Of a DNA stretch of 32,000 nucleotides, positions 1 to 28,223 are shown one piece after another (the first letter of the stretch is position 1; the number at the start of each line of letters is the position of its first letter). The DNA lies in NCBI RefSeq assembly GCF_000014265.1, contig NC_008312.1, positions 6,990,001 through 7,022,000 on the forward strand, in the 5' to 3' direction. The notes under the pieces were generated by a model, which saw only the letters and a program-made list of their open reading frames with translations, ran no database searches and was not told the origin of the DNA. The position numbers were made by a program, and so were the translations under genes. The stretch is from Trichodesmium erythraeum IMS101. Its GTDB lineage: Bacteria; Cyanobacteriota; Cyanobacteriia; Cyanobacteriales; Microcoleaceae.

Positions 1-470
1 GTATTGTGGGTTAAGCTTGCCTATATACATGACTTTTTATTCAACCCATTTATGGCCGCAAATCACAGACCATGGAATATTGGGAAAATTTTTACAGGAG
101 AAAAGAGCAGATATATTTTCACTTTCTGAAGCACCCATAAATATATGTTTGTTTTTTCCCAAAGTCTTTCCATCCATCCTTAGTGGAAAATTACTCTGCT
201 TTTTCATTCTCTGGAGCCCCAGAAAAAATGCCGCGACTTTGAAAAATCTGATTCCATCCTCATGATTTTTGTGATATTATAAATGTATTGTGGGGGTAGT
301 TCGCCTATATACATGACTTTTTATTCAACCCATTTATTTTGGCAAATCACAGACCATGGAATATTGAGGAAATTTTCCCAGAAGCAATAGTAGGAATATT
401 CTCATCCTGTGAAGCTCCAAAAAAATCCTGAACAAATCTTTCCATCTATCCCTGAATGTGGAAAACCACA
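1..470. repeat. Tandem direct repeat, about 284-bp unit, about 1.65 copies (1-284, 285-~470). The window starts inside the array. Related to the array at 3686-4402.
   Basis: GTATTGTGGG..GCCTATATACATGACTTTTTATTCAACCCATTTA..CAAATCACAGACCATGGAATATTG occurs at 1 and again at 285. The 3' halves diverge. Confidence 0.85.
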
Positions 471-1420: not shown

Positions 1421-1757
1421 CTATGCTAATAAAATTACTGAGGCTACCAAATAAACCCCTCCCAGGAAGTTAACCGAACTTTTATCGTATCTTGTTGCGA
1501 TCCCTCGATACTGTTTGAGTTTGGCAAAGAAAGAAATTTTCGCTCAGATGACGTGCTTTGTACAAGCCTTTGATCATAATTACGCTGTTCTTTTTGGTTT
1601 TTTTTCGGAGGAATCACTACTTCTATGCCTCTTTGGGTTAAGGCCCAATTGCCCGCTCTTGAGCATCATAAGCTTTATCCCCTAATAGCGCTTCTGCTTC
1701 CACCATCGGTAATAAAACATCTGCCCCCTCCAAGTCAGAGGCTTGAGCTATTGTCAT
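1421..1757 (-). pseudogene. IS5-family transposase, C-terminal half only, with several frameshifts
   Basis: Minus-strand pieces read AQASDLEGADVLLPMVEAEALLGDKAYDAQERAIGP, QRGIEVVIPPKKNQKEQRNYDQRL, YKARHLSENFF and FAKLKQYRGIATRYDKSSVNFLGGVYLVASVILLA* in three different frames. The N-terminal half is absent, and the relic abuts the rhodanese stop. Confidence 0.75.
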
Positions 1758-3194: not shown

Positions 3195-3625
3195 TGTTCT
3201 CTATCCAGGTTGTGTTAAACTAAGCCAGGTAAGTTACCCTGCCCGACTCGTCTTCAGAACCGGACGTGAGACTTTCACCTCATCCGGCTCCCCTCCTGAG
3301 CGTCCCTTGTCATGGGTACATCCTGCACTAGGGTTAACATATCGTTGATCCATTGGTAATTATCAGGTAGGTCCTGTGCCTTAAATTTTGGATATGCTTT
3401 AACGTCCAGTGCCGTTTTGCTGTCGTGACAATGTCGATGTAATAACTAATTATCCTAACAACTTTAGCATTGTCTTTTACCGTACCAATACTTTGATGGA
3501 TACTTTGATGACCCACTCCAACTAAGCCTTTTTGGTCGTAGGTATTTCCGTTTGGTTCCATAAGTTTTAAATTAATTGATATACTCCCATCAAATCCAAA
3601 TTTATGATGGGTAATTCTGATCATA
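3195..3625 (-). mobile_element. Group II intron, 3' fragment: maturase (X-domain) remnant plus domains V/VI. The 5' part is missing and the outer limits are approximate.
   Basis: A canonical domain V lies at 3257-3290. ORF 3334-3624 carries RT-domain-7/maturase-like strings (KFGFDG.., ..VVRIISYYIDIV..AKRHW). No RT domains 1-6 and no 5' GUGYG end are present. Confidence 0.7.
3257..3290 (-). ncRNA. Group II intron domain V (catalytic hairpin)
   Basis: The minus strand reads GAGCCGGATGAGGTGAAAGTCTCACGTCCGGTTC. This is 34 nt with the AGC triad, a 2-nt bulge position, a GAAA tetraloop and the closing CGGTTC. Confidence 0.85.
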
Positions 3626-10588: not shown

Positions 10589-11437
10589 TTAAGCCACAGC
10601 TAACTCCTCAAGTTCACAAATATATCGCCCTACTGCAGTAGCAATAGGGCGTAAACTTTGAACTAACTTCACCATATCTTCCAACGACAATGCTTGCTGG
10701 GCATCCGAAACCGACTTCTCCGGTATAGGATGACACTCTATCATCAAACCATCCGCTCCGCAGGCAACCGCAGCTTTTGCCAAGGATGCCACCAACTCCC
10801 TTCTACCAGCAGCATGAGAAGGATCGACAATAACTGGCAAATGAGTCAACTGTTTCAATGCAGCTACCGCACCCAAATCTAAAACATTACGAGTATAACT
10901 ATCAAAACTACGAATACCTCTTTCACATAAGACCACATTAGGGTTGCCATAACTGAGAATATATTCAGCTGCCATTAAAAATTCCTCAATAGTTGCAGCT
11001 AGCCCCCGTTTCAAAATCACAGATTTGCCAGCTTTCCCAACTGCTTTGAGTAACTCAAAGTTTTGCATATTGCGACTACCTATTTGCAGCATATCTGCAT
11101 AAGCAACTACTGACTCTATTTGCGGAATAGACATAACTTCTGTTACTACTGGGATATTGTAGCGTTGGCGAACGGATGCCAAAATTTTTAATCCTTCTAT
11201 TCCCAACCCCTGAAATGAGTAGGGAGAAGTGCGGGGTTTGTAGACACCTCCCCGGAACATTTGCACAGGTGCCATTATTAACTTATTTGCTACTGCTGTC
11301 ATTTGTTCCATACTTTCAACAGTGCACGGACCTCCAATAATTAAAAAATTTGTACCTCCTACCGTTGTCTGTTCAGAAATATTGACAACTGTTTGATCTT
11401 CCGAGTGAGACTTGGATACAAGTTTAGTTTTAGACAT
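10589..11437 (-). CDS. aroF: 3-deoxy-7-phosphoheptulonate (DAHP) synthase, type I-beta
   Basis: 282-aa ORF with GGPCTVES, LQIGSRNMQNFELLK and IVDPSHA motifs. An AAGGAG RBS lies 8 nt upstream of ATG 11437. Confidence 0.9.
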   Translation of the reverse strand: MSKTKLVSKSHSEDQTVVNISEQTTVGGTNFLIIGGPCTVESMEQMTAVANKLIMAPVQMFRGGVYKPRTSPYSFQGLGIEGLKILASVRQRYNIPVVTEVMSIPQIESVVAYADMLQIGSRNMQNFELLKAVGKAGKSVILKRGLAATIEEFLMAAEYILSYGNPNVVLCERGIRSFDSYTRNVLDLGAVAALKQLTHLPVIVDPSHAAGRRELVASLAKAAVACGADGLMIECHPIPEKSVSDAQQALSLEDMVKLVQSLRPIATAVGRYICELEELAVA

Positions 11438-11468
11438 GAGATTTTCTCCTTGATAAATTAAGTAGGGT

Positions 11469-11506
11469 AAAAAATAAAAAACCCGGAACCATTATCAGTT
11501 CCGGGT
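11469..11506 (-). terminator. Rho-independent terminator of the proximal attenuator
   Basis: The minus strand reads ACCCGGAAC, tgataatg, GTTCCGGGT, then TTTTTATTTTTT. The stem is a perfect 9 bp. The structure ends 31 nt before the aroF ATG. Confidence 0.8.
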
Positions 11507-11531
11507 GAAAAGTAAAAGTCAGCATAACAAG

Positions 11532-11594
11532 TTACCCGGAACTATATCGGGGCCAAAAATAAAAACTGTAATACCATTTGTTAACTTGAGTCAT
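11532..11594 (-). CDS. Leader peptide 2: MTQVNKWYYSFYFWPRYSSG* (8 of 20 residues are W/Y/F)
   Basis: Translated by hand codon by codon from ATG 11594-11592 to TAA 11534-11532. The last codons and stop (AGTTCCGGGTaa) are the 5' arm of the antiterminator. Confidence 0.6.
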   Translation of the reverse strand: MTQVNKWYYSFYFWPRYSSG

Positions 11595-11631
11595 GGCTGT
11601 TCGTGTCTTTTTTTGATACGTCGAGTTTGTG

Positions 11632-11662
11632 AACAAAAAACCGCAGTGTTTATGCTGCGGTT
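11632..11662 (-). terminator. Rho-independent terminator of the distal attenuator
   Basis: The minus strand reads AACCGCAG, cataaaca, CTGCGGTT, then TTTTG. Read with a 6-bp CCGCAG/CTGCGG stem, it is followed by T6. Confidence 0.7.
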
Positions 11663-11707
11663 CACTCAGAGATTTATAGAAAAAAACTATATTCACTCCA
11701 AGTGAAC

Positions 11708-11749
11708 CTATTTATACCAAAAATAAAGGTAGAAATTATGGATAAACAT
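11708..11749 (-). CDS. Leader peptide 1: MFIHNFYLYFWYK* (7 of 13 residues are W/Y/F)
   Basis: Translated by hand from ATG 11749-11747 to TAG 11710-11708. The stop codon overlaps GGTTCACT, the 5' arm of an antiterminator. Confidence 0.55.
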   Translation of the reverse strand: MFIHNFYLYFWYK

Positions 11750-12259
11750 CGGCTTTTTATTAGTGTAAAGAAATGTACTAGTTATGGAATCTTTTATGCT
11801 TAGAGCAAGAATACTTCTTTTTATTTATTAATAAACAATCATAGCAGACACTTTAGATAGTGTCAAGCCCCTATAGGATTTTTTTTTCGGGGCTAGATGT
11901 AAAGCCACCTTTAGACATAGGGGTGAAAAAGAATGCAAAGCTTCTCTAAAAGGTTTACTCGGAAAAGCTTATGTAATTTCTGTATTAGTGGTAAACAAAG
12001 AAAGAATTTTTGCACCTTAAATGAATGGATGACAGGGATATATAGTAATCCTATTTTGGTTATAATATTGTGTAGTAATTAGGATTCATAATTAAAAATA
12101 TTTTCAGTTCAAGTCAACTATTTTAATATGATTATAGCCAATTTATGGATTGCTATAACATTATTAATATCATTAAACATGAACTAACTACCAAAAAATT
12201 GAGGTGATTTTGCTGTTAATTATAATTATGAATTATCCTAATTTACAATTTATTCCTGT

Positions 12260-13756
12260 TCAAAATCTGCCTCTTTTATTTATTTTACCTAGTGTCATTT
12301 GTAACGCTCTATTATATTTTTTTTCATTCTCCTTAACTGACTGCCATAAATCAATAATTGGTTCTGGATAATCTACCCCTATTTTGACACCAAATCTATC
12401 TTGTTCAACAGGTAATAATTTCCAAGGTTCATGTACTTTAGCAGGAGGAACTTTTCCTAATTCTGGTAACCAATGTTTAACATATTTTCCTTCTGGGTCG
12501 TAATCTTTTGCTTGTTTAGGAATATTAAAATAGCGAAAACCTCGCCCATCATTTCCTACTCCAGCAGTGTAATTCCAATTTCCCCAATTACTACAAACAT
12601 CATAATCTATTAGTAAAGACTCAAACCATTCAGCTCCCATTTGCCAATTAATTCCTAAATTTTTAGTAAGAAAACTAGCAACATTTTGTCGACCACGATT
12701 TGACATAAAACCTGTAGCTAAAAGTTCACGCATATTAGCATCTACTAGAGGAAATCCTGTTTGACCTGCTTGCCACTTTCTAAATTTTTCCCAATCCTCT
12801 TGCCAAGGAATAGCTATACCTTGTAAACCAGATTTATGAAATATTTTATTCCCATGTTTTTGACAAATAAATCGGAAGTAATCTCGCCATATTAACTCAA
12901 ATATTAACCAATAAGTTGATTGATTCTTGACTCTTTGATATTCATATTCTTTAACTTCTTCATAAATATAACGAGGTGACAAACATCCTAAAGCTAACCA
13001 AGGGGAAAATTTAGAAGAATAATTGGCACCTAGCATTCCATTTCTGGTTTCCTTATAAACTTTTAAATAGTCTTGCTGCCAAAAGTAGTTTTTTACTCTT
13101 TCCTTAGCGGCAGTTTCTCCACCTTTAAATTCTAAAACTCCCTGTGAATTTAGTGGCGGTTTTTCTAGATTTAAATCAGATAATGTAGGTAATTCTCCCA
13201 CATCAATTTTTGGTAAGGATGATAATTTTTTAGGGATTGAGAATGTAGGGTTTACACTAGAATTTTTCTCTACATCTTTACGAAAAGTAGTAAATAATTC
13301 TGGTAATTGTTTTATTTCAAAAGGTAAATCATCTGGATGGTAAAGTGTATGACCCCAAAATGATTTTAACCTAACTCCAATTTGTTTTAGTGCTTGATGA
13401 ACTAATCTTTCTACTTTAACTTCGAGCTCAGTAACTTCTTGATGAAAAAATACTGATTTAGCAGATAATTGTTGAGCTAGTCTAGGAATTACTATTTCTG
13501 GTTTATCTTGAAAAATAACTAAATTACTACCTAATTTTTGTAGGTTGTTACGCAAATCAGCAATACTTTCTAGTAAAAACTTTGCTCTAAATACACCTGT
13601 TTTAGGAAAACCAAAATCTGTTTGACTAAATTGCCTTGGATCTAAACAATAAATCGGTATAATTTGAGCATTAACTTTGAGTGCTTTATATAGTGGTTCA
13701 TGGTCATGGATGCGTAGGTCATTACGATACCATAATATAATTACGTTTTGACTCAT
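12260..13756 (-). CDS. DASH-family cryptochrome / photolyase-family flavoprotein
   Basis: 498-aa ORF. The N-terminus ILWYRNDLRIHDHEPLYKAL..YCLDPRQF..FGFPKTG matches the cry-DASH pattern, and the C-terminal FAD-binding part contains WRDYF, SNRGRQNVASFL and DYDVCSNWGNWNY. Confidence 0.9.
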   Translation of the reverse strand: MSQNVIILWYRNDLRIHDHEPLYKALKVNAQIIPIYCLDPRQFSQTDFGFPKTGVFRAKFLLESIADLRNNLQKLGSNLVIFQDKPEIVIPRLAQQLSAKSVFFHQEVTELEVKVERLVHQALKQIGVRLKSFWGHTLYHPDDLPFEIKQLPELFTTFRKDVEKNSSVNPTFSIPKKLSSLPKIDVGELPTLSDLNLEKPPLNSQGVLEFKGGETAAKERVKNYFWQQDYLKVYKETRNGMLGANYSSKFSPWLALGCLSPRYIYEEVKEYEYQRVKNQSTYWLIFELIWRDYFRFICQKHGNKIFHKSGLQGIAIPWQEDWEKFRKWQAGQTGFPLVDANMRELLATGFMSNRGRQNVASFLTKNLGINWQMGAEWFESLLIDYDVCSNWGNWNYTAGVGNDGRGFRYFNIPKQAKDYDPEGKYVKHWLPELGKVPPAKVHEPWKLLPVEQDRFGVKIGVDYPEPIIDLWQSVKENEKKYNRALQMTLGKINKRGRF

Positions 13757-20347: not shown

Positions 20348-21723
20348 CGGGACTTTAGTGAAAAAATAGTAAAAAAAAGGGTATAATGTATACCTGATAT
20401 GTATTTTACGTTAATTACTGGCCTGGGAAAAGTTTGATGAAAGAAACAACTTCAGTGGCCATGCCCTCTTGTTTCCATCGATGGTGCGATCGCTTTAACA
20501 ATGTCTTTAAAACAAAAGCCCAAAAAACAGGGTTTAGGGAATATATAGGAGGATTACTCTTGAGAAAGCGATCGAAAAAACTTGTCTCAAATTGCCAACA
20601 ACACTGTAGGTCACACGTACCACAAATTACGGCATTTTCTAGTTCGAGCAAATTGGTCTGTAGATGCTGTGAATGAGCGTCGTCTTCAAGTAATGTGGGA
20701 ACGTCGCCAAACAAAACCTTCTCGATCCTATTGCTTTAATTATAGACGATTCAGGCCACAGAAAAAGTGGTAATTTTACTGCAGGAGTAGGGCGGCAATA
20801 TATAGGAGAAATAGGAAAAACAGATAATGGTGTAGTCGTGGTGACAACTCATCTTTATGATGGAGTTAAAAGTCTACCTTTAGACATAGCTTTGTATCAG
20901 AAAGCTGATTCTTTTCCAAAAGGAAAAAAAGACCCAGAATTTGTCAAGAAACCAGACGAGTGCAATGTCTCTAGTAGATCAATGTTTGTCCAGAGGACAC
21001 CAACCAGAAATTGTGTTAATTGAAATTTGGCTATGGTAACAATACATCATTCTTAAATCAACTAGAGAAAAGAAGTTTAACTTATATAGGAGGATTAGCT
21101 AAAAATCGAAAAGTCATCATTAAAAAACAAGATGACATTAAAGAGGAAATTAGATTAGACAAGCTGGCAGAAAGTATACCTCAGAAAGCTTTCAACTTAG
21201 TTCAACTAAGTACAAAAAATGCTAGAGAAGTTTGGGTAGCTACATTAGAAGTAGAAATATCTAGGATGTCAGGTCAAAAAACTATAGCTATCGTTATGAA
21301 TGCTAAAAGTTTTTCTGAGGCCACTGATATTAACTATTATATCACTAATAGAGAAGACAAATATGTAACTCCTGAGTGGATATATTCTACTTATTCTCAA
21401 AGAAATTGGGTGGAAGTTTTCTACAGGGAAGCCAAAGGATGGTTAGGATTAAGAGAATATCAAGTCAGAGATAAAATCAGCCTTAAAAGGCATTTTATTT
21501 TAGTATTTTGTGCTTATACATTTATTATCTGGCATCAGTTAACAGGAGGTATAAGAAGGCGTTGGGCTAACAAACCATTAAATACGTTTACTGATACTTT
21601 AGAAGCATTTCGTACCGCAATATCTTATCGTTTTGTTGAGTGGTTAGATGAAAACATCGACGTATTTACCGCTCATAAAGAGAGTTTAGGGTTTGTTTGG
21701 GCTTGAAATTTGCTAAAGTCCCG
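20348..21723 (+). mobile_element. IS701-like element, copy 1 (1376 bp), nested in the IS4-family element. The transposase is frameshifted.
   Basis: The ends are CGGGACTTTAG.. and ..CTAAAGTCCCG, with a 4-bp TSD ATAA at 20344-20347 and 21724-21727. Transposase pieces are spread over at least 4 frames (..YHKLRHFL, LIIDDSGHRKSG.., GVGRQYIGEIGKTDNG, and the 228-aa C-terminal ORF 21020-21706). Confidence 0.85.
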
Positions 21724-25711: not shown

Positions 25712-28223
25712 CGGGACTTTAGCAAATTTCAAGCCCAAACAAACCCTAAACTCTCTTTATGAGCGGTAAATACGTCGATGTTTTCATCTAACCACTCAAC
25801 AAAACGATAAGATATTGCGGTACGAAATGCTTCTAAAGTATCAGTAAACGTATTTAATGGTTTGTTAGCCCAACGCCTTCTTATACCTCCTGTTAACTGA
25901 TGCCAGATAATAAATGTATAAGCACAAAATACTAAAATAAAATGCCTTTTAAGGCTGATTTTATCTCTGACTTGATATTCTCTTAATCCTAACCATCCTT
26001 TGGCTTCCCTGTAGAAAACTTCCACCCAATTTCTTTGAGAATAAGTAGAATATATCCACTCAGGAGTTACATATTTGTCTTCTCTATTAGTGATATAATA
26101 GTTAATATCAGTGGCCTCAGAAAAACTTTTAGCATTCATAACGATAGCTATAGTTTTTTGACCTGACATCCTAGATATTTCTACTTCTAATGTAGCTACC
26201 CAAACTTCTCTAGCATTTTTTGTACTTAGTTGAACTAAGTTGAAAGCTTTCTGAGGTATACTTTCTGCCAGCTTGTCTAATCTAATTTCCTCTTTAATGT
26301 CATCTTGTTTTTTAATGATGACTTTTCGATTTTTAGCTAATCCTCCTATATAAGTTAAACTTCTTTTCTCTAGTTGATTTAAGAATGATGTATTGTTACC
26401 ATAGCCAAATTTCAATTAACACAATTTCTGGTTGGTGTCCTCTGGACAAACATTGATCTACTAGAGACATTGCACTCGTCTGGTTTCTTGACAAATTCTG
26501 GGTCTTTTTTTCCTTTTGGAAAAGAATCAGCTTTCTGATACAAAGCTATGTCTAAAGGTAGACTTTTAACTCCATCATAAAGATGAGTTGTCACCACGAC
26601 TACACCATTATCTGTTTTTCCTATTTCTCCTATATATTGCCGCCCTACTCCTGCAGTAAAATTACCACTTTTTCTGTGGCCTGAATCGTCTATAATTAAA
26701 GCAATAGGATCGAGAAGGTTTTGTTTGGCGACGTTCCCACATTACTTGAAGACGACGCTCATTCACAGCATCTACAGACCAATAGACATCTCCAAAAATA
26801 CTCAAACGCTTATCCTAACTATCTTTAGTGGTGCGATCGCTACTTATGAAGATAGTTAATTTGTACAGTTTTATGGGCATCAGAGATACTTTGTGTTACT
26901 AATTCAAATATTTATTGTACTTTAATTTATTCTTTTTATCTCAGCTTTTGATGGTTTATGCTAATATAAAAGATCCAATTCTTAGTCGCACTAAACCACA
27001 TATTGTTAAGATTACTTTTTGATAATTATTATCTTTTAATCTGAATCTTTCTCTAGCAATTCCAAATATTTTAATTAATCTTATTACATGTTCTACAAAT
27101 ATTCTCTTTCTGGCTTTTTCTTGATTTTCTTCTTTGATTTCTAGCGGCATTTCTTTTTTTCTTGGTTTCTTTTTTGGTGTAGTAGTTCTTTCTACTCCTT
27201 CATAAGCTTTATCTCCTTGAAATTTTTGTTTTTTATCAAATTTATCCTGTTGTTTTCTTAATATTTTTACATCACTTACTGGACCTTTTTCTCCTACTAT
27301 TACATCTACTATTTCTGTTCCTTTTGGTGTCGTTATTATTTGATTTTTAAAAGTATGATTTTTATTTTTTCATATTTTATATTTTTATTGGTCTTTATAT
27401 TCACTTGGTCTTTCTCTACTTTGTTCTGTACTATCTACAATTAATTCTAATTCTGTTAATATCTCCTTTACCCATTCCAATTCATTTTCTTTTTTTTTTA
27501 CTTGTTCTAATAAACTTGCTGGCAGTAATTCTCTGAGAATATCTATCCAGTAATGAAAAATATTATTAGCACTTGATTCACTTATACCAAAGTTAATTCC
27601 TAATGTTTGAAAAGTCGGTATTTGATGTAAATAAAATAACGTTAAAATTATTTCTTCCTCCTTTGTTAAATTCTTTTTTCTGACTCCACCTGCTTTAATT
27701 AATCTTTTTTCTGTTTTAGCGATCGCCTTCTTTTTCTCTGATTCTATTATTTGGGCCTTTGCTATTAATTTTATTAGCTGTTCATAAGTAATGCCAATAA
27801 TTCTTTTTGTTTCTTTTGGATGGTTATAAATATATTCTAAAGTTGGATTCATTTGGGAGACTTTATAAATAAATGGTTTTGATAATTTTACCTTATTTTT
27901 TATTTTGGAGATGTCTAATTTGCTCGAACTAGAAAATGCCGTAATTTGTGGTACGTGTGACCTACAGTGTTGTTGGCAATTTGAGACAAGTTTTTTCGAT
28001 CGCTTTCTCAAGAGTAATCCTCCTATATATTCCCTAAACCCTGTTTTTTGGGCTTTTGTTTTAAAGACATTGTTAAAGCGATCGCACCATCGATGGAAAC
28101 AAGAGGGCATGGCCACTGAAGTTGTTTCTTTCATCAAACTTTTCCCAGGCCAGTAATTAACGTAAAATACATATCAGGTATACATTATACCCTTTTTTTT
28201 ACTATTTTTTCACTAAAGTCCCG
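25712..28223 (-). mobile_element. IS701-like element, copy 2, interrupted by IS5-like copy B1
   Basis: It has the same ends as copy 1 and a 4-bp TSD CTAC at 25708-25711 and 28224-28227. ORFs 25729-26415 and 26412-26597 give the same proteins as 21020-21706 and 20838-21023. The length 2512 equals 1376 + 1133 + 3. Confidence 0.9.
26784..27916 (-). mobile_element. IS5-like (HTH_Tnp_4 + DDE_Tnp_4 type) element, copy B1, 1133 bp
   Basis: The IRs are AGACATCTCCAAAA.. and ..TTTTGGAGATGTCT, with a 3-bp TSD AAT at 26781-26783 and 27917-27919. It interrupts the sequence that is continuous in IS701-like copy 1 (..AGACCAATTTGCTCG..). Confidence 0.9.

Follow-up and report, generated by a model that had tools for sequence, protein, structure and literature searches.

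We analysed a stretch of 32,000 nucleotides (nt) from Trichodesmium erythraeum IMS101 (contig NC_008312.1, positions 6,990,001 to 7,022,000; hereafter the window, numbered from its first letter), in which a minus-strand gene at 11437..10589 codes for a DAHP synthase (3-deoxy-D-arabino-heptulosonate-7-phosphate synthase) of 282 aa, with which the synthesis of Phe, Tyr and Trp begins. The leader of this gene contains at 11749-11632 a unit, here called distal, that is in all likelihood a ribosome-mediated (leader-peptide) transcription attenuator, the first of two arranged in tandem in the DAHP synthase mRNA leader, as judged from comparative sequence evidence and folding models. The parts that characterize such an attenuator are present together: an open reading frame (ORF) rich in aromatic codons, a terminator between this ORF and the gene, a helix that excludes the terminator and lies within reach of the ribosome, and a downstream gene whose pathway matches the codons. 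A previous sequence-only reading of this DNA had proposed a second aromatic attenuator with its own switch and terminator, and this proposal is supported by the conservation of the ORF, covariation, association with DAHP synthase, a promoter and the geometry of the ribosome footprint.

Layout and predicted promoter of the distal unit

The leader ORF had been placed on the minus strand from ATG 11749 to TAG 11708, with seven of its 13 residues being F, Y or W, and it is present exactly at those coordinates (ATG 11749-11747, TAG 11710-11708), encoding MFIHNFYLYFWYK*. Its aromatic fraction of 0.54 is the highest among the 292 ATG ORFs of 10-30 aa in the window (mean 0.13, standard deviation 0.10); the leader ORF of the proximal unit ranks sixth. 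Based on the family alignment described below, the regulatory codon block F6 Y7 L8 Y9 F10 W11 Y12 occupies positions 11714-11734.

The 5′ arm of the antiterminator (arm 1, GGTTCACTTGGAG, 11696-11708) can pair with a 3′ arm (arm 2, CTCTGAGTGAACC, 11659-11671). Complementarity of GGTTCACTTGG (11708-11698) and CTGAGTGAACC (11669-11659) had been pointed out previously and was borne out, the helix being longer than claimed with 13 pairs (11708-11696 with 11671-11659; 11 Watson-Crick and two G-U). An upper hairpin, TATAG-T7-CTATA, lies between the arms at 11675-11691. Arm 2 ends in AACC, which also begins the 5′ arm of the intrinsic terminator hairpin, as had been stated. This hairpin (11639-11662) consists of AACCGCAG (11662-11655), the loop CATAAACA and CTGCGGTT (11646-11639), and is followed by the T-run TTTTTTGTT (11632-11640), the predicted 3′ end of the attenuated RNA. 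The terminator, likewise part of the earlier proposal, was also detected by a pattern scan as a stem of nine pairs, five of them G-C, followed by TTTTTTGTT. In 1.1 kb the scan found two terminator-like sites compared to 0.4 expected; the second is the terminator of the proximal unit. Folding of 151 nt yielded -41.7 kcal/mol, compared to -21.1 ± 3.2 kcal/mol for shuffled sequences (z = -6.4; none of 200 shuffles was equal), and the minimum-energy fold includes the 13-bp antiterminator capped by the upper hairpin.

A TACACT at 11767-11762 had been suggested as -10 element of the promoter, but it is neither conserved nor matched by the consensus scan. In its place, the scan identified TTGACA-17-TATGAT with an extended TG (11866-11838, minus strand; 11 of 12 consensus positions matched), with the -35 hexamer at 11861-11866 and the extended -10 at 11838-11846 (TG 11846-11845, TATGAT 11843-11838). 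Within 170 nt upstream of the distal unit, TTGACN-16..18-TANNNT is present in 60 of 63 relatives, while the background is 0.02 per 180 nt. Other Trichodesmium contigs carry TATAAT or TATTAT as -10, so that the only variable base is the weakly constrained fourth position. Transcription is predicted to start near A11832, which would give an 83-nt 5′ untranslated region (UTR; 11750-11832), A-rich ahead of the ATG, and an attenuated RNA of about 200 nt. The text of the IMS101 primary-transcriptome paper contains no mention of the DAHP synthase leader locus. Upstream of the promoter, an inverted repeat AGCCCC (11894-11889) / GGGGCT (11871-11866) with an A-run in between shares one base with the -35 element.

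The gene downstream was identified by Pfam (PF00793 DAHP_synth_1, E = 6.7e-77) and by identity of its 282-aa product to ABG53517.1 / WP_011613839.1 of T. erythraeum IMS101; it is preceded by a Shine-Dalgarno sequence AAGGAG. The next gene upstream, also on the minus strand, codes for a photolyase/cryptochrome (13756..12260), and the distal unit is located in the gap of about 820 nt between the two genes, in the DAHP synthase 5′ leader.

Distribution and conservation of the family

One genome per species was scanned for relatives of the DAHP synthase and the best 80 loci were taken. They stem from Okeania, Microcoleus, Lyngbya, Leptolyngbya, Stenomitos and many Melainabacteria/Obscuribacterales; a few non-cyanobacterial loci ranked lowest. 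The 800 nt upstream were searched blindly for small ORFs rich in aromatic residues, and two conserved leader ORFs emerged in most cyanobacterial loci, encoding peptides of a distal type, M..SYFYFWYxxV(H/R)xx*, and a proximal type, M..WYYGFYFWPxxSSG*. Distal units that were not identical to one another (the window and 52 relatives, 53 in total) were aligned (alignment A1), and a covariance model, R1, was built from the 52 relatives with the window left out. R1 scored the window at 11756-11627 (minus strand) with 102.3 bits (E = 2.5e-18) and gave the proximal unit only 25 bits, in agreement with the earlier statement that peptide and stems differ between the two units.

Among the cyanobacterial or melainabacterial loci (L001-L071), R1 matched 65, always upstream of DAHP synthase and on the strand of the gene, while no match was obtained in the non-cyanobacterial loci L072-L080. 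A separate metagenome scan with a 30-nt degenerate pattern taken from the end of the ORF returned 80 loci, 69 of them with enough downstream DNA. DAHP synthase followed in 65 of these 69 matches, and the other four were chance matches without a terminator. Since the R1 loci and the 65 real metagenome matches all lie ahead of DAHP synthase, the element is specific to DAHP synthase leaders in everything sampled.

The number and type of units vary between loci. Two distal-type units in tandem, both matched by R1, occur in L060 (2183-2468), and two Obscuribacter loci (L062, L065) possess one unit each, of the distal type, which precedes the gene by about 90-105 nt. Considering the double distal units of the former and the lone distal units of the latter, the distal type may be the ancestral unit. 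On a contig labelled Actinomycetota (L072), an aromatic leader ORF that is unrelated (MQRNFTYNSYWYWFS...) and has a strong terminator behind it was found about 250 nt ahead of the match to DAHP synthase; from its sequence, it resembles an attenuator of this type of gene that is independent of the family.

Coding evidence for the leader ORF comes from its relatives. All 52 keep the start codon, the aromatic run and the invariant TGA in a single frame; the start is mostly ATG, with GTG in five relatives and TTG in one. Over the six codons ending at Trp, F/Y/W make up 82% in this frame, compared to 30 and 23% in the other two (family alignment). Substitutions in the aromatic block are mostly exchanges of Y and F or synonymous, and TGG is kept in 48 of the 53 sequences. 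In 50/53 sequences, 11 nt separate the Trp codon from arm 1. In three loci from Obscuribacterales metagenome-assembled genomes (L056, L059, L067) both leaders carry Tyr-only runs (YYYYY and YYYY); codon identity thus changes together in the two units, and the sequences suggest leaders of a Tyr-specific isozyme. The codons of arm 1 vary freely (VHLE, VRPE, VHQR, VHRP and others), with matching changes in arm 2. As the amino acids vary while pairing is kept, the constraint in this part is on RNA pairing and not on the peptide.

The sequence-only reading had proposed conservation of ORF and stems in relatives as a check, and both are kept, with covarying helices. The antiterminator (A1 columns 52-64 with 98-110) is paired in 88.4% of cells, and nine of its 13 pairs are changed on both sides, as in the replacement of CAC-TTG with CAA-GTG by CGC-CCG with CGG-GCG. 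None of 500 shuffles reached any of these measures, and sliding the partner left only 31-53% paired. In the terminator, 97.9% of cells are paired over the 53 sequences and four of eight pairs are compensatory. Its core CCGC/GCGG (columns 109-112 and 129-132; window 11660-11657 and 11644-11641) is invariant, although the DAHP synthases of these 53 sequences are only 62-83% identical to that of the window; the double use in the antiterminator accounts for CC/GG only. Unguided, RNAalifold recovered part of the antiterminator and the terminator. The segments between the arms differ in sequence among relatives yet fold better than shuffles (mean z -1.1; 32/53 below -1), consistent with a conserved upper hairpin.

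Other structures and ORFs in this region were considered and rejected. The local hairpin TTCACT-tgg-AGTGAA (11706-11692) exists as it had been written down, but the competing role assigned to it is unsupported: the 85% of cells in which it can pair are mainly explained by the invariance of the stop codon, and covariation is almost absent. In the minimum-energy fold of the window, the start region (AAGCCG/AUGUUUA) pairs with the loop and 3′ arm of the terminator; across 43 relatives this pairing had a mean z of -0.4 and was significant in only seven, and it was discarded as a feature of the family. The mechanically called ORFs 11505-11705 (plus strand) and 11532-11696 (minus strand) have no Pfam match as genes, and the compensatory and indel pattern also argues against them.

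The possession of a conserved promoter of its own and of a strong terminator with an unusually invariant core would also fit a terminated RNA of about 200 nt (11832 to 11633, both approximate) that acts mainly as a small regulatory or dual-function RNA, with the promoter also driving the mRNA by read-through and the ORF being secondary. Such an arrangement has been described for cyanobacteria as an ‘actuaton’ (PMC6596454). We consider this explanation very unlikely. The 5′ UTR is the least conserved part of the RNA, with an identity of 0.47-0.61 to the other Trichodesmium clade, Dapis and Okeania; the arms and the terminator reach 0.85-1.00 to other genera, while the inter-unit spacer remains at 0.47-0.61 like the 5′ UTR. 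Conservation coincides with the aromatic codons, both arms and the terminator; furthermore, the unit is found only ahead of DAHP synthase, and codon identity follows the amino-acid class. A trans-acting role added to attenuation is possible.

Folding model, early stop codon and proposed mechanism

For the distal unit as an attenuator, we infer the start site, the translation of the ORF, the stalling, the termination in vivo and the kinetics from sequence and models. Transcription would begin near 11832 at the sigma-70-type promoter, and a ribosome would translate the 13-codon ORF. When Phe-, Tyr- or Trp-tRNA is scarce, the ribosome would stall within F-Y-L-Y-F(-W), still 11-26 nt short of arm 1, and leave arm 1 (GGUUCACUUGGAG) free to pair with arm 2 once the latter has been transcribed. 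This pairing would sequester AACC, the base of the terminator stem, and RNA polymerase would read on to the proximal attenuator and then to the gene. With charged tRNAs, the ribosome would reach the stop codon and cover arm 1, the terminator would fold, and a transcript of about 200 nt would end near 11633.

The mechanism was modelled by barring pairing from 18 nt 5′ of the first base of the A-site codon to 12 nt 3′ of it, and pair probabilities (P) were computed for an RNA that ended with the terminator stem. With codons 7-10 (Y, L, Y, F) in the A site, GGUU:AACC formed with P = 0.94-0.98 and the base of the terminator with P ≤ 0.06. With Y12, K13 or TAG in the A site, the base of the terminator formed with P = 0.96-0.97. 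When arm 1 was masked in all 53 sequences, P of the terminator was 0.93-0.98. Without a ribosome, the antiterminator was favored in the RNA of the window (P = 0.91), and termination should therefore require translation.

Within A1, only the window has an in-frame stop ahead of the family TGA; it reads W Y K TAG | GTT CAC TTG GAG TGA. The TGA is invariant in 53/53 sequences (window 11695-11693), and relatives outside the T. erythraeum clade have a sense codon at the position of TAG, then four more codons (V-H/R-x-x) before TGA. In a second Trichodesmium clade (DAHP synthase 90% identical to that of the window), in Dapis and in Okeania, GAG stands at this position and the full ORF has 18 codons (...EVHLE*). 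TAG was found in every contig of the T. erythraeum clade examined, including a diverged sub-lineage (L081-L087). Confinement of TAG to this clade, with GAG in its neighbors, identifies it as a recent nonsense change, the ancestral stop being at 11695-11693. The overlap of the stop codon with arm 1 noted previously is therefore true for T. erythraeum but is a derived state, as relatives read through to TGA. The former end of the ancestral ORF, GTT CAC TTG GAG TGA (V H L E stop; 11693-11707, minus strand, from the family alignment), would leave vestigial codons V H L E that are predicted to be no longer translated owing to the upstream TAG. The now-untranslated 16 nt (11708-11693) were 100% identical in all four comparisons.

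The early stop raises the question whether T. erythraeum, within a family of real attenuators, has only a relic of the unit, weakened or disabled. Owing to the change from GAG to TAG, the ribosome would be gone by the time arm 2 is transcribed; read-through would then prevail at the distal unit, or its response would be lost, and regulation would fall to the proximal unit. We regard this as unlikely, though less so than the other alternatives. The restriction of TAG to the T. erythraeum clade, with the 52 other family members reading on to TGA, is in line with a relic, as is the preference of the ribosome-free RNA for the antiterminator. In the model, however, 11 of the 13 bases of arm 1 remained masked when TAG occupied the A site, and the terminator formed with P = 0.96, so that the truncated ORF is compatible with function. 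Moreover, TAG is kept in two diverged sub-lineages of T. erythraeum, between which arm 1 through TGA as well as arm 2 and the terminator are 100% identical, and aromatic-to-aromatic and compensatory changes are ongoing. The divergence within the T. erythraeum clade is too small to prove continued selection. Judging from the model, fast release at TAG could make the unit leakier.

Several observations weigh against a functional attenuator. No Shine-Dalgarno sequence is recognizable before the ATG of the distal ORF. Antiterminator and terminator compete only for AACC, the basal part of the terminator stem that adjoins the U-tract, an overlap of just 4 nt; as is generally the case for terminators, loss of these four pairs should abolish termination. 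With W11 in the A site the model was borderline (P = 0.75) and dependent on the edge of the footprint (+10, +12 or +14). The early TAG requires that a ribosome stays at the stop during transcription of about 75 further nt, and early release would favor read-through. The mechanism as a whole presupposes that transcription and translation are tightly coupled in cyanobacteria. Finally, with arm 1 free, the folds of the family are roughly balanced at equilibrium (mean P of about 0.4 vs 0.55). Discrimination must hence be kinetic, and it would follow from the order of transcription, as arm 2 is made before the 3′ arm of the terminator.

Two nearly balanced folds would also suit a switch controlled by a protein, as with TRAP, or by a small-molecule ligand, as in a riboswitch, with the ORF being incidental, and some columns are invariant outside the pairing overlap, e.g., GTGA after arm 1 and CCGCAG/CTGCGG. 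This is the least probable of the alternatives and in our opinion can hardly be correct. The in-frame start, aromatic run and stop in 52/52 relatives and the frame-specific aromatic bias speak against an incidental ORF, and the fixed 11-nt spacing between the W codon and arm 1 matches a ribosome footprint. No internal loop or junction big enough for a ligand pocket is conserved. No Rfam leader family (Phe_leader, Trp_leader, Leu/Phe leader and others) matched in the window at the gathering threshold, and at E ≤ 10 over 11400-11900 no leader or riboswitch family was found, the only sub-threshold hit being L20_leader over the proximal unit.

Tandem arrangement and comparison with known systems

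The proximal attenuator (11471-11594, minus strand) consists of the ORF MTQVNKWYYSFYFWPRYSSG* (11594-11532), which starts 38 nt past the distal T-run, and a terminator at 11506-11481 with a T-run. The last codons of its ORF, AGTTCCGGGT, pair with the 5′ arm of this terminator, and in relatives the end of the leader and the terminator arm change in step (TTCCGGG with CCCGGAA vs TCCCGGG with CCCGGGA). By strict criteria, a second unit comparable to the proximal one is present in at least 39 of 66 related loci, while some Obscuribacter loci have only a distal-type unit. Both units carry F, Y and W codons, and two switches in series should multiply termination probabilities.

Elsewhere in the window, another aromatic-rich mini-ORF, MFYYRWWKQKRY (1682-1720, minus strand), lies just after a terminator-like site downstream of a rhodanese-like gene; as an aromatic leader it was rejected, since no gene of the aromatic pathway lies downstream. 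At 3214-3293 (minus strand) Rfam matched group II intron domains 5/6 with 60.5 bits. Two transposase-like ORFs of 228 aa (21020-21706, plus strand, and 25729-26415, minus strand) are identical and in inverted orientation, and ORF fragments are duplicated (20415-20714 / 27905-28156 and 20434-20676 / 27385-28137). These ORFs and fragments are copies of repeated insertion sequences.

Leader-peptide attenuation is a classical class of mechanism. For cyanobacteria, a comparative paper from 2016 reported no reliable evidence of attenuation (PMC4833913). In the full-text literature we found no published DAHP synthase leader of this kind in cyanobacteria, with most subscription journals not covered and earlier publication possible; papers and a review on cyanobacterial termination, small RNAs and small proteins made no mention of such leaders. 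We lean toward regarding the units as an ancient and so far undescribed family of leader-peptide attenuators that would be the first on record in Cyanobacteria and is common to the non-photosynthetic Melainabacteria/Obscuribacterales. Such a family would place DAHP synthase directly under the control of Phe/Tyr/Trp-tRNA charging, usually by two serial switches. If functional, the family implies that tRNA charging controls the entry of carbon into the shikimate pathway at the RNA level in many cyanobacteria, that this control is older than the split of photosynthetic cyanobacteria and Melainabacteria, and that transcription-translation coupling works in a phylum without Rho. It would enable a direct in vivo test of this coupling in cyanobacteria and, for the engineering of shikimate-pathway flux, offer a compact means of sensing the three aromatic amino acids together. 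The T. erythraeum copy would be a natural variant with the ribosome stopping just before, and not after, the antiterminator arm.

The closest functional analogue is aroR-aroF of Corynebacterium glutamicum (Neshat et al., 2014, as summarized in PMC11802643), where a leader peptide with Phe-Tyr-Phe is located upstream of a DAHP synthase gene and stalling raises transcription; the unit is reported to respond to Phe only. Both systems thus place a leader peptide with aromatic codons before DAHP synthase. They belong to different phyla, and a sequence relationship was neither tested nor seen. The aromatic run of the cyanobacterial family is longer than in aroR and mixes Y/F/W, with Trp included; in addition, the family has its invariant stop within the antiterminator and usually a second unit in tandem.

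With pheL-pheA and trpL-trpEDCBA of E. coli the family shares the short ORF with regulatory codons, mutually exclusive antiterminator and terminator, the U-tract and a biosynthetic gene downstream. However, it is a three-segment and not a four-segment system, a 1:2 hairpin being unsupported. While the trp leader of E. coli terminates strongly when untranslated, the RNA of the window is predicted to read through. Three amino acids would be sensed at once, and the enzyme controlled is that at the entry of the common pathway instead of a terminal branch.

Tandem cis-regulators are known from tandem riboswitches, from tandem T-boxes on trp operons and from the two-ORF mgtCBR leader of Salmonella. 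As in these systems, two complete termination switches in one leader would make basal expression the product of the read-through probabilities and the response steeper. Different from them, both units of the DAHP synthase leader are leader-peptide attenuators, with similar F/Y/W content but different peptides and stems.

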